In this document: one piece after another, positions 36,478 to 36,708 of the stretch
How positions within the stretch are numbered: the first letter of the stretch is position 1
Layout: each line of letters opens with the position of its first letter
NCBI RefSeq assembly: GCF_003334815.1
Contig: NZ_QOWO01000020.1
Strand: one strand, 5' to 3'
DNA length: 64,000 nucleotides
From: Escherichia coli
GTDB lineage: Bacteria > Pseudomonadota > Gammaproteobacteria > Enterobacterales > Enterobacteriaceae
Position numbers and translations under genes: made by a program
Notes under the pieces: model-generated
The model's database searches: none
Told to the model about the DNA's origin: nothing
What the model saw: only the letters and a program-made list of their open reading frames with translations

Positions 36478-36494
36478 TGCGTCAGAATGGCGCA
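36478..36494 (+). promoter_or_regulatory. NtrC-like enhancer half-palindrome upstream of astC
   Basis: TGCGTC-AGAAT-GGCGCA resembles the NtrC consensus TGCACC-N5-GGTGCA. Lies about 200 bp upstream of the sigma54 element. Confidence 0.35.
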
Positions 36495-36692
36495 GTAATT
36501 TCCAGTAAATTTCGTCAATGATCACAATTCCAGAATTATATTTTACTTCTGCATAACATTGCGTTTTTTATTCTTTTTATTCACCCACATCGCAAACGTA
36601 TTCACTTTATATGCACTTTAAATGCATATGGTTTGGTTATAACTCCTTGATTTCCAGTTAGCCTCCGCCGTTTATGCACTTTTATCACTGGC

Positions 36693-36708
36693 TGGCACGA
36701 ACCCTGCA
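36693..36708 (+). promoter_or_regulatory. sigma54 (-24/-12) promoter of the astCADBE operon
   Basis: TGGCACGAACCCTGCA matches TGGCAC-N5-TTGCA (GG and GC correctly spaced), about 75 bp upstream of the astC ATG. Confidence 0.7.

Follow-up and report, generated by a model that had tools for sequence, protein, structure and literature searches.

The astCADBE control region of Escherichia coli: a base-level map of its sigma54 promoter, tandem NtrC-type enhancer and candidate accessory sites

Introduction

The control region of astCADBE (cstC) has reportedly been described in E. coli K-12 and Salmonella by Kiupakis and Reitzer in 2002, by Lu and Abdelal in 1999 and by Fraley et al. in 1998. According to the literature, the operon is activated by NtrC and sigma54, with ArgR as an accessory activator that induces the astC operon with arginine in both E. 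coli and Salmonella, and RegulonDB, as quoted in a cited paper, lists ArgR, CpxR and NtrC sites at astCADBE. Here we consider a 64,000-nucleotide stretch of E. coli DNA (hereafter the window), part of which is very probably the E. coli K-12 control region of this operon, whose products form the arginine succinyltransferase (AST) pathway, and belongs to the NtrC/sigma54 enhancer type. Compared with the published region, it is the same locus, with a sequence that shows no difference from MG1655 and with the set of regulators that the literature names for it (NtrC, ArgR, RpoS and ArcA); relative to the published footprints, the NtrC, ArgR and CRP coordinates given here are computed and may differ in detail. 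The astC control region is thus already known and well studied, and what may possibly be new is a conserved IHF-type site together with a strictly conserved spacing between enhancer and promoter.

Two other NtrC-activated promoters of E. coli offer the closest comparisons. According to the literature, the IHF-assisted glnHp2 is also a weak sigma54 promoter that has tandem NtrC sites with a bending protein in between, and its IHF core, AATCAAGGAGTTG, is nearly identical to the AATCAAGGAGTTA found at astC. However, the NtrC-like sites of glnHp2 lie at most about 130 bp from the promoter motif, whereas the distance is 215 bp at astC; the orientation of the IHF core relative to transcription is opposite at astC; and glnH is not described as ArgR-dependent. 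The glnAp2 enhancer resembles that of astC in that its -24/-12 promoter is preceded by two high-scoring 17-bp dyads sharing one helix face. The glnA sites are nearer consensus (about 20 bits, versus 12-13 bits at astC) and are 32 bp apart rather than the 20 bp seen at astC, and glnA carries no IHF consensus. The glnA NtrC sites, at -108 and -140, are also closer to the promoter than the astC pair.

The canonical ArgR operator, which consists of two 18-bp ARG boxes 3 bp apart, provides a third point of reference. The astC region has its half-site vocabulary in common with such operators (TGAAT/TGCAT ... ATTCA/ATGCA). In contrast, canonical operators overlap the promoter, whereas the astC boxes are degenerate, lie 100-160 bp upstream of the promoter, form no high-scoring pair and, per the literature, activate rather than repress.

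Identity and layout of the locus

The spacer between the divergent genes xthA (ATG at 36335, minus strand) and astC (ATG at 36781, plus strand) measures 445 bp and holds the control region described here. Positions 36263-36863 are identical at 601 of 601 bases to the reverse complement of MG1655 NC_000913.3 1831900-1832500, and 5425 of the 5426 complete E. coli genomes carry 36340-36800 at 90% identity or more, annotated as astC; the annotation of xthA and astC agrees with this identity. A window position x converts to NC_000913.3 as 1831982 + (36781 - x), and for U00096.2 the value 1830006 replaces 1831982. Elsewhere in the window, TGGCATGAGAGTTGCT at 1959-1974 on the minus strand is the known yeaG sigma54 promoter (OS18 of Bonocora 2015), and its position bears out both the identity of the window and the way it is oriented.

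Conservation was assessed in 80 astC loci from Enterobacteriaceae genomes (81 loci for the IHF-type site) and in a 25-genus alignment. Single-site consensus scans for NtrC, ArgR, CRP and IHF all returned matches at chance frequency, and inference draws instead on trained matrices combined with conservation. The NtrC matrix derives from nine Ntr promoter regions of K-12 other than that of astC and recovers, among others, the glnA dyads 32 bp apart; the symmetric ArgR matrix was built from 11 K-12 operators (carA, argA, argE/C, argD, argI, argF, argG, argR, artJ, artP and hisJ).

A preliminary description of the region, drawn from its sequence, had named a sigma54 element, an NtrC-like dyad and a palindrome, and all three were located exactly; a second NtrC site, the CRP-like block, the IHF-like site, the ArcA site and a second promoter were absent from its list. 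The AT-rich stretch that it placed between the motifs is real (36495-36692 has 34% GC, versus 50% for the window), and its proposal that the pattern fits the known nitrogen and arginine control of the AST pathway agrees with the literature on NtrC/sigma54 and accessory ArgR. The features are as follows.

36458-36474, unstranded: predicted distal NtrC (NRI) site, TGCCCGCTTTTGGTGCG; centre about -253; 12.3 bits, rank 4 of 64,000 positions
36478-36494, unstranded: predicted proximal NtrC site, TGCGTCAGAATGGCGCA; centre about -233; 12.8 bits, second-highest of all window positions
36507-36529, unstranded: CRP-like block, AAATTTCG-N6-GATCACAATT; one good half, TCACA; centre about -200
36548-36565, unstranded: ARG-box-like TCTGCATAACATTGCGTT; centre about -162; 6.0 bits in E. 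coli; TGCATAA conserved
36589-36629, unstranded: cluster of ARG-type half-sites, ATTCA at 36600-04, ATGCA at 36611-15 and TGCAT at 36623-27; centres about -100 to -121
36640-36652, minus strand: exact match to the IHF core consensus WATCAANNNNTTR, seen as AATCAAGGAGTTA; centre about -73; candidate bending site
36671-36683, unstranded: near-invariant TTTATGCACTTTT, about -48 to -36; conserved in 25 of 25 genera
36692-36708, plus strand: sigma54 promoter CTGGCACGAACCCTGCA, with GG at -24 and GC at -12; ChIP-seq peak OS17
36709-36722, plus strand: invariant ATCTACATTTACAG just downstream of -12; mean conservation 0.98; contains the sigmaS-like CTACATT
36727-36769, minus strand: ArcA-P repressor site (four direct repeats), downstream of the sigma54 start within the astC leader; overlaps a sigma70/sigmaS-type start implied near 36748

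The sigma54 promoter

The element TGGCACGAACCCTGCA at 36693-36708, which had been proposed as a sigma54 -24/-12 element, ends 73 bp before the astC ATG and has GG and GC doublets 10 bp apart, fitting TGGCAC-N5-TTGCW. It is the published, in vivo sigma54-occupied astC promoter. The motif reported for astC as OS17 is exactly CTGGCACGAACCCTGCA, described as 'experimentally confirmed in EcoCyc', centred at U00096.2 1830087 (window 36700) on the minus strand, with a FAT value of 7 and a PSSM score of 11.29 (Bonocora 2015). Since the window is identical to MG1655 at this place, this published occupancy applies here. The OS17 start was predicted 19 bp downstream, 62 bp before astC (Bonocora 2015), and our predicted sigma54 start at 36719 gives a leader of 62 nt. 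The Salmonella orthologue, TGGCACGAATGCTGCAAT, is bound by sigma54 in ChIP-chip, and the form TGGCA[CT]-N6-TGCA is kept in all 80 Enterobacteriaceae loci at -87 to -92 from the astC ATG. Comparison with published promoter data and conservation thus both bear out the original call.

The broader pattern TGGCAY-N5-YTGCW has 4 exact matches in the 64 kb, where 0.47 would be expected; the yeaG promoter is another of the four. Two matches elsewhere in the window, at 24780-24795 (plus strand) and 33867-33882 (minus strand), both ending in CTGCT, are absent from the high-stringency main-text tables of Bonocora 2015 and are probably due to chance.

ArgR-type half-sites in the AT-rich interval

The palindrome ATGCACTTTAAATGCAT at 36611-36627, which extends to 10-nt arms (36609-18 and 36620-29) that are 90% complementary, had been taken to resemble an ArgR box. 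The palindrome and its half-sites are indeed present, though the ArgR matrix places the best box elsewhere: the palindrome's own register, 36611-28, scores 6.0 bits, a value that turns up about once in every kb, whereas the box at 36600-17, which overlaps only the left arm, scores 12.0 bits and is among the top 4 in the window. The latter value lies within the range of single boxes in the trained operators (7.7-21.9 bits). The stretch at 36530-47 reaches 6.5 bits. Matches to the ARG-box consensus with at most 3 mismatches number 12 in the window, versus 10.7 expected, and 36600-36617 is the only one in the xthA–astC spacer.

Across the 25 genera, four registers are consistently positive. Register 36600 has a median of 11.9 bits and reaches at least 6 bits in 84% of genera, and register 36548, with a median of 7.1 bits, does so in 64%; for registers 36589 and 36610, which stand at the canonical 21-bp offset and form a weak conserved pair, the medians are 8.2 and 4.7. 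A canonical two-box operator (18+3+18) is absent from the astC spacer, where the best pair scores 8.9 bits against 24.9-39 for the pairs of the trained operators, and the positions of the ArgR boxes are accordingly uncertain. What is conserved is a series of half-sites, ATTCA at 36600-04, ATGCA at 36611-15 and TG[A/C]AT at 36623-27, at spacings of about 11 bp. The right arm reads TGAAT in most genera and TGCAT in E. coli, and the perfect dyad is confined to Escherichia.

These observations also bear on whether the palindrome at 36609-36629 could be the operator of another dimeric regulator, with ArgR acting elsewhere in the region. The odd spacing of the dyad (arms of 7 nt separated by 7 nt, or of 10 nt separated by 1 nt) does differ from the even 18-bp ARG box, and both the score of 6.0 bits in its own ArgR register and the lack of a canonical ARG pair would fit such an operator. 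However, the dyad is perfect in Escherichia only, and the TGAAT found elsewhere breaks the palindrome while improving the ARG half-site; moreover, conserved half-sites about 11 bp apart are the pattern of ArgR on one helix face, and TATGCAC makes up the first seven bases of a box in the argR operator. We consider a separate regulator of this kind unlikely, and prefer to read the cluster as degenerate half-sites for ArgR.

The IHF-type site

Between the ArgR-like boxes and the sigma54 promoter lies an IHF-type site that probably supplies a fixed DNA bend through IHF, as judged from its sequence and conservation. The IHF consensus has 3 matches in the window, versus 3.05 expected, and a single occurrence is therefore at the level of chance. 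In 77 of 81 Enterobacteriaceae loci, nonetheless, an exact match to the consensus stands at a constant distance of 52-53 bp from TGGCA, and the site varies only where the consensus is degenerate: the specified positions are conserved in 76-81 of the 81 loci (94-100%), the W position is A or T only, and the N4 positions vary freely. As a positive control, the glnHp2 region carries AATCAAGGAGTTG; glnA and nac are without a match. A link between IHF and astC was not found in the reachable literature.

Might the AT-rich interval then work mainly through IHF and intrinsic curvature, with the ARG-like matches as mere by-products of AT-richness? Conservation of the IHF core exactly as the degeneracy of its consensus predicts would be expected on such an account, the ARG-like matches are weak, and ARG-box matches are inflated in AT-rich DNA. 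Against this, the literature reports arginine induction by ArgR in E. coli and Salmonella, together with the RegulonDB ArgR sites, and the box at 36600-17 combines its rank in the window with scores of at least 6 bits in most genera (84%). An action of IHF is, furthermore, compatible with one of ArgR, the two not being exclusive. That IHF and curvature should account for the interval in this way is very unlikely, and we retain the reading in which ArgR half-sites and a probable IHF site are both present.

The NtrC-type enhancer pair and its spacing

The dyad TGCGTC-AGAAT-GGCGCA at 36478-36494, 199 bp upstream of the sigma54 element, had been likened to an NtrC site. Taken singly, it is unremarkable: the consensus TGCACC-N5-GGTGCA, with at most 3 mismatches, has 31 matches in the window versus 33 expected, each of the astC NtrC-like sites departs from it at 3 positions and is thus at chance frequency, and 3.1 single matrix sites of at least 12 bits are expected per 64 kb. 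Judged by its sequence, the dyad is the proximal half of a tandem NtrC-type enhancer whose partner, missed in the preliminary description, occupies 36458-36474, and its significance derives from this adjacent second site and from conservation rather than from a single-site score. On the trained matrix the two sites rank 2 and 4, and their combined 25.0 bits make them the best pair in the 64-kb window, a score that only 1 of 200 simulated 64-kb sequences (first-order Markov) attained. Besides the pair, the xthA–astC intergenic region holds no other NtrC matrix site of 3 bits or more.

In the 25-genus alignment the GC cores of the half-sites in the two adjacent 17-bp dyads are invariant or nearly so, and the distal site reads TGCACCaTTnTGGcGCG in other genera. 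Within the 460 bp upstream of astC, 72 of 80 loci have their two best matrix matches exactly 20 bp apart, and in 75 of 80 the proximal site starts 215/216 bp before TGGCA, though the sequences of the sites vary widely. This constant distance suggests, on comparative grounds, strong selection on enhancer–promoter geometry. The spacer as a whole does vary in length, and the variation is restricted to its xthA-proximal part, the enhancer–promoter interval (36458-36693) being nearly constant.

Published binding data place NtrC at the locus more coarsely. An NtrC ChIP-seq peak seen under N starvation has been attributed to astCADBE, for which 'direct binding' is cited to Kiupakis and Reitzer, and NtrC and RpoN gSELEX peaks fall within the astC/xthA spacer. 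The gSELEX peak, at about window 36351, is more than 100 bp off the predicted NtrC sites, and the ChIP-seq peak of Brown et al. 2014, U00096.2 1830021-1830101 (window 36686-36766), falls on the promoter instead of the predicted enhancer. The 80-bp NtrC peaks of the latter study sit at or just downstream of the sigma54 promoters at glnA and nac as well as at astC, with offsets of about 130-230 bp; because the offset is equal at glnA and nac, whose NtrC sites are known, these peaks are unfit to position enhancers. It is highly improbable that TGCGTC-N5-GGCGCA is a GC-rich dyad arisen by chance, or that it serves the divergent xthA gene, with the true NtrC enhancer elsewhere: the number of consensus matches and the peak coordinates that miss the dyad would allow it, but the dyad is one of the two top matrix matches upstream of astC in nearly every genus, it keeps its distances both to its partner (20 bp) and to the sigma54 element (215/216 bp), the intergenic region offers no other site of 3 bits or more, the ChIP-seq peaks are equally displaced where sites are known, and some 80 bp separate the dyad from the conserved block on the xthA side (36370-82).

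The second-best NtrC matrix pair in the window, at 3041-3109, includes TGCATTACGGTGGTGCA at 3093-3109. This sequence is near a published NtrC gSELEX peak at U00096.2 1,863,654 (about window 3133), between yeaE and mipA.

The CRP-like block and the ArcA site

The CRP-like block at 36507-36529 adjoins the enhancer. Within it, GATCACA is invariant and AAATTTCG nearly so in the 25 genera. Measured against the CRP dyad TGTGA-N6-TCACA, the right half TCACA is perfect and invariant and the left half agrees at 2 of 5 positions; at 3 mismatches such matches are at chance level, with 224 in number versus 224 expected. A CRP site beside the NtrC sites was reportedly footprinted in Salmonella by Lu and Abdelal in 1999, and it is on this footprint that the tentative assignment of the block to CRP is based.

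Downstream of the sigma54 start, in the astC leader, ArcA-P protects 44 bp from DNase I and gives a ChIP-seq signal at astC (Park 2013). The supplement to that study lists the ArcA site as U00096.2 1830018-1830060, 'CAGTAAATAATTCG...', at '-22 to 22' from a mapped start (Park 2013), and we placed it on the window by exact match, at 36727-36769. Its position of '-22 to 22' implies a second, sigma70/sigmaS-type start near 36748, with TATTAT at 36736-41 as the -10 element.

Proposed mechanism and significance

The elements described above can be assembled into a working model. Sigma54 RNA polymerase would form a closed complex on CTGGCACGAACCCTGCA, the occupied promoter. Under nitrogen limitation, phosphorylated NtrC would assemble on the two 17-bp dyads at 36458-74 and 36478-94, two helical turns apart, and would contact the polymerase by looping out about 215 bp of AT-rich DNA, leading to an open complex and a start near 36719. 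The looped segment would in turn bind architectural and accessory proteins. Arginine-bound ArgR, on degenerate half-sites whose exact limits we infer (about 36548-65 and 36589-36629), would raise expression further, and the IHF-type site at 36640-52 would probably give a fixed bend. The CRP-like block at 36507-29 stands next to the enhancer, and CRP and sigmaS would provide carbon-starvation and stationary-phase input. Finally, ArcA-P bound at 36727-69, over the second, sigma70/sigmaS-type promoter, would bring about anaerobic repression.

One part of this model can be taken a step further, albeit tentatively. The site at about -73 may be a hitherto unremarked IHF site whose constitutive bend lets NtrC act from an unusually distant UAS (-233/-253); such a bend could explain the 'ArgR-independent induction', with ArgR adding a second, arginine-dependent wrap on the adjacent half-sites. 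We regard this as a conjecture with rather less in its favour than against it. If a constitutive bend does operate, its geometry would have left an evolutionary signature in the almost complete lack of indels that dozens of Enterobacteriaceae genera show across the 215 bp from UAS to promoter.

For the most part, our analysis confirms that a textbook sigma54/NtrC/ArgR control region can be recognised from sequence alone. Its added value resides in a base-level, conservation-backed map that comprises the NtrC pair, the degenerate ArgR half-sites, the ArcA site, the IHF-type site and the rigid enhancer–promoter spacing. Should the IHF site prove both real and undescribed, it would add detail to the model for activation of a weak sigma54 promoter over a distance of about 240 bp, and it would bear on why activation is only partly ArgR-dependent.

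Other conserved stretches

Two further stretches flank the sigma54 element, namely TTTATGCACTTTT upstream and ATCTACATTTACAG downstream, and none of the factors examined here explains them. The former repeats the TATGCAC motif of 36610-16, and the ArgR matrix scores there are negative. CpxR, Lrp and Nac consensus readings of the conserved blocks, made by eye, were rejected, as the spacings misfit. A scan of 36300-36800 for sigma70-consensus promoters and terminators gave nothing exceeding shuffles, and the one Rfam candidate noted in a scan of 36250-36850, mgtC_leader, was rejected as sub-threshold (21 bits against a gathering score of 48).

On the xthA side of the spacer, GATGGTAGCAGAA at 36370-36382 is invariant across the 25 genera. 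Read on the minus strand, as TTCTGCTACCATC, it resembles a -10 element with an upstream C, of the sigmaS type, and may possibly belong to a promoter of xthA.
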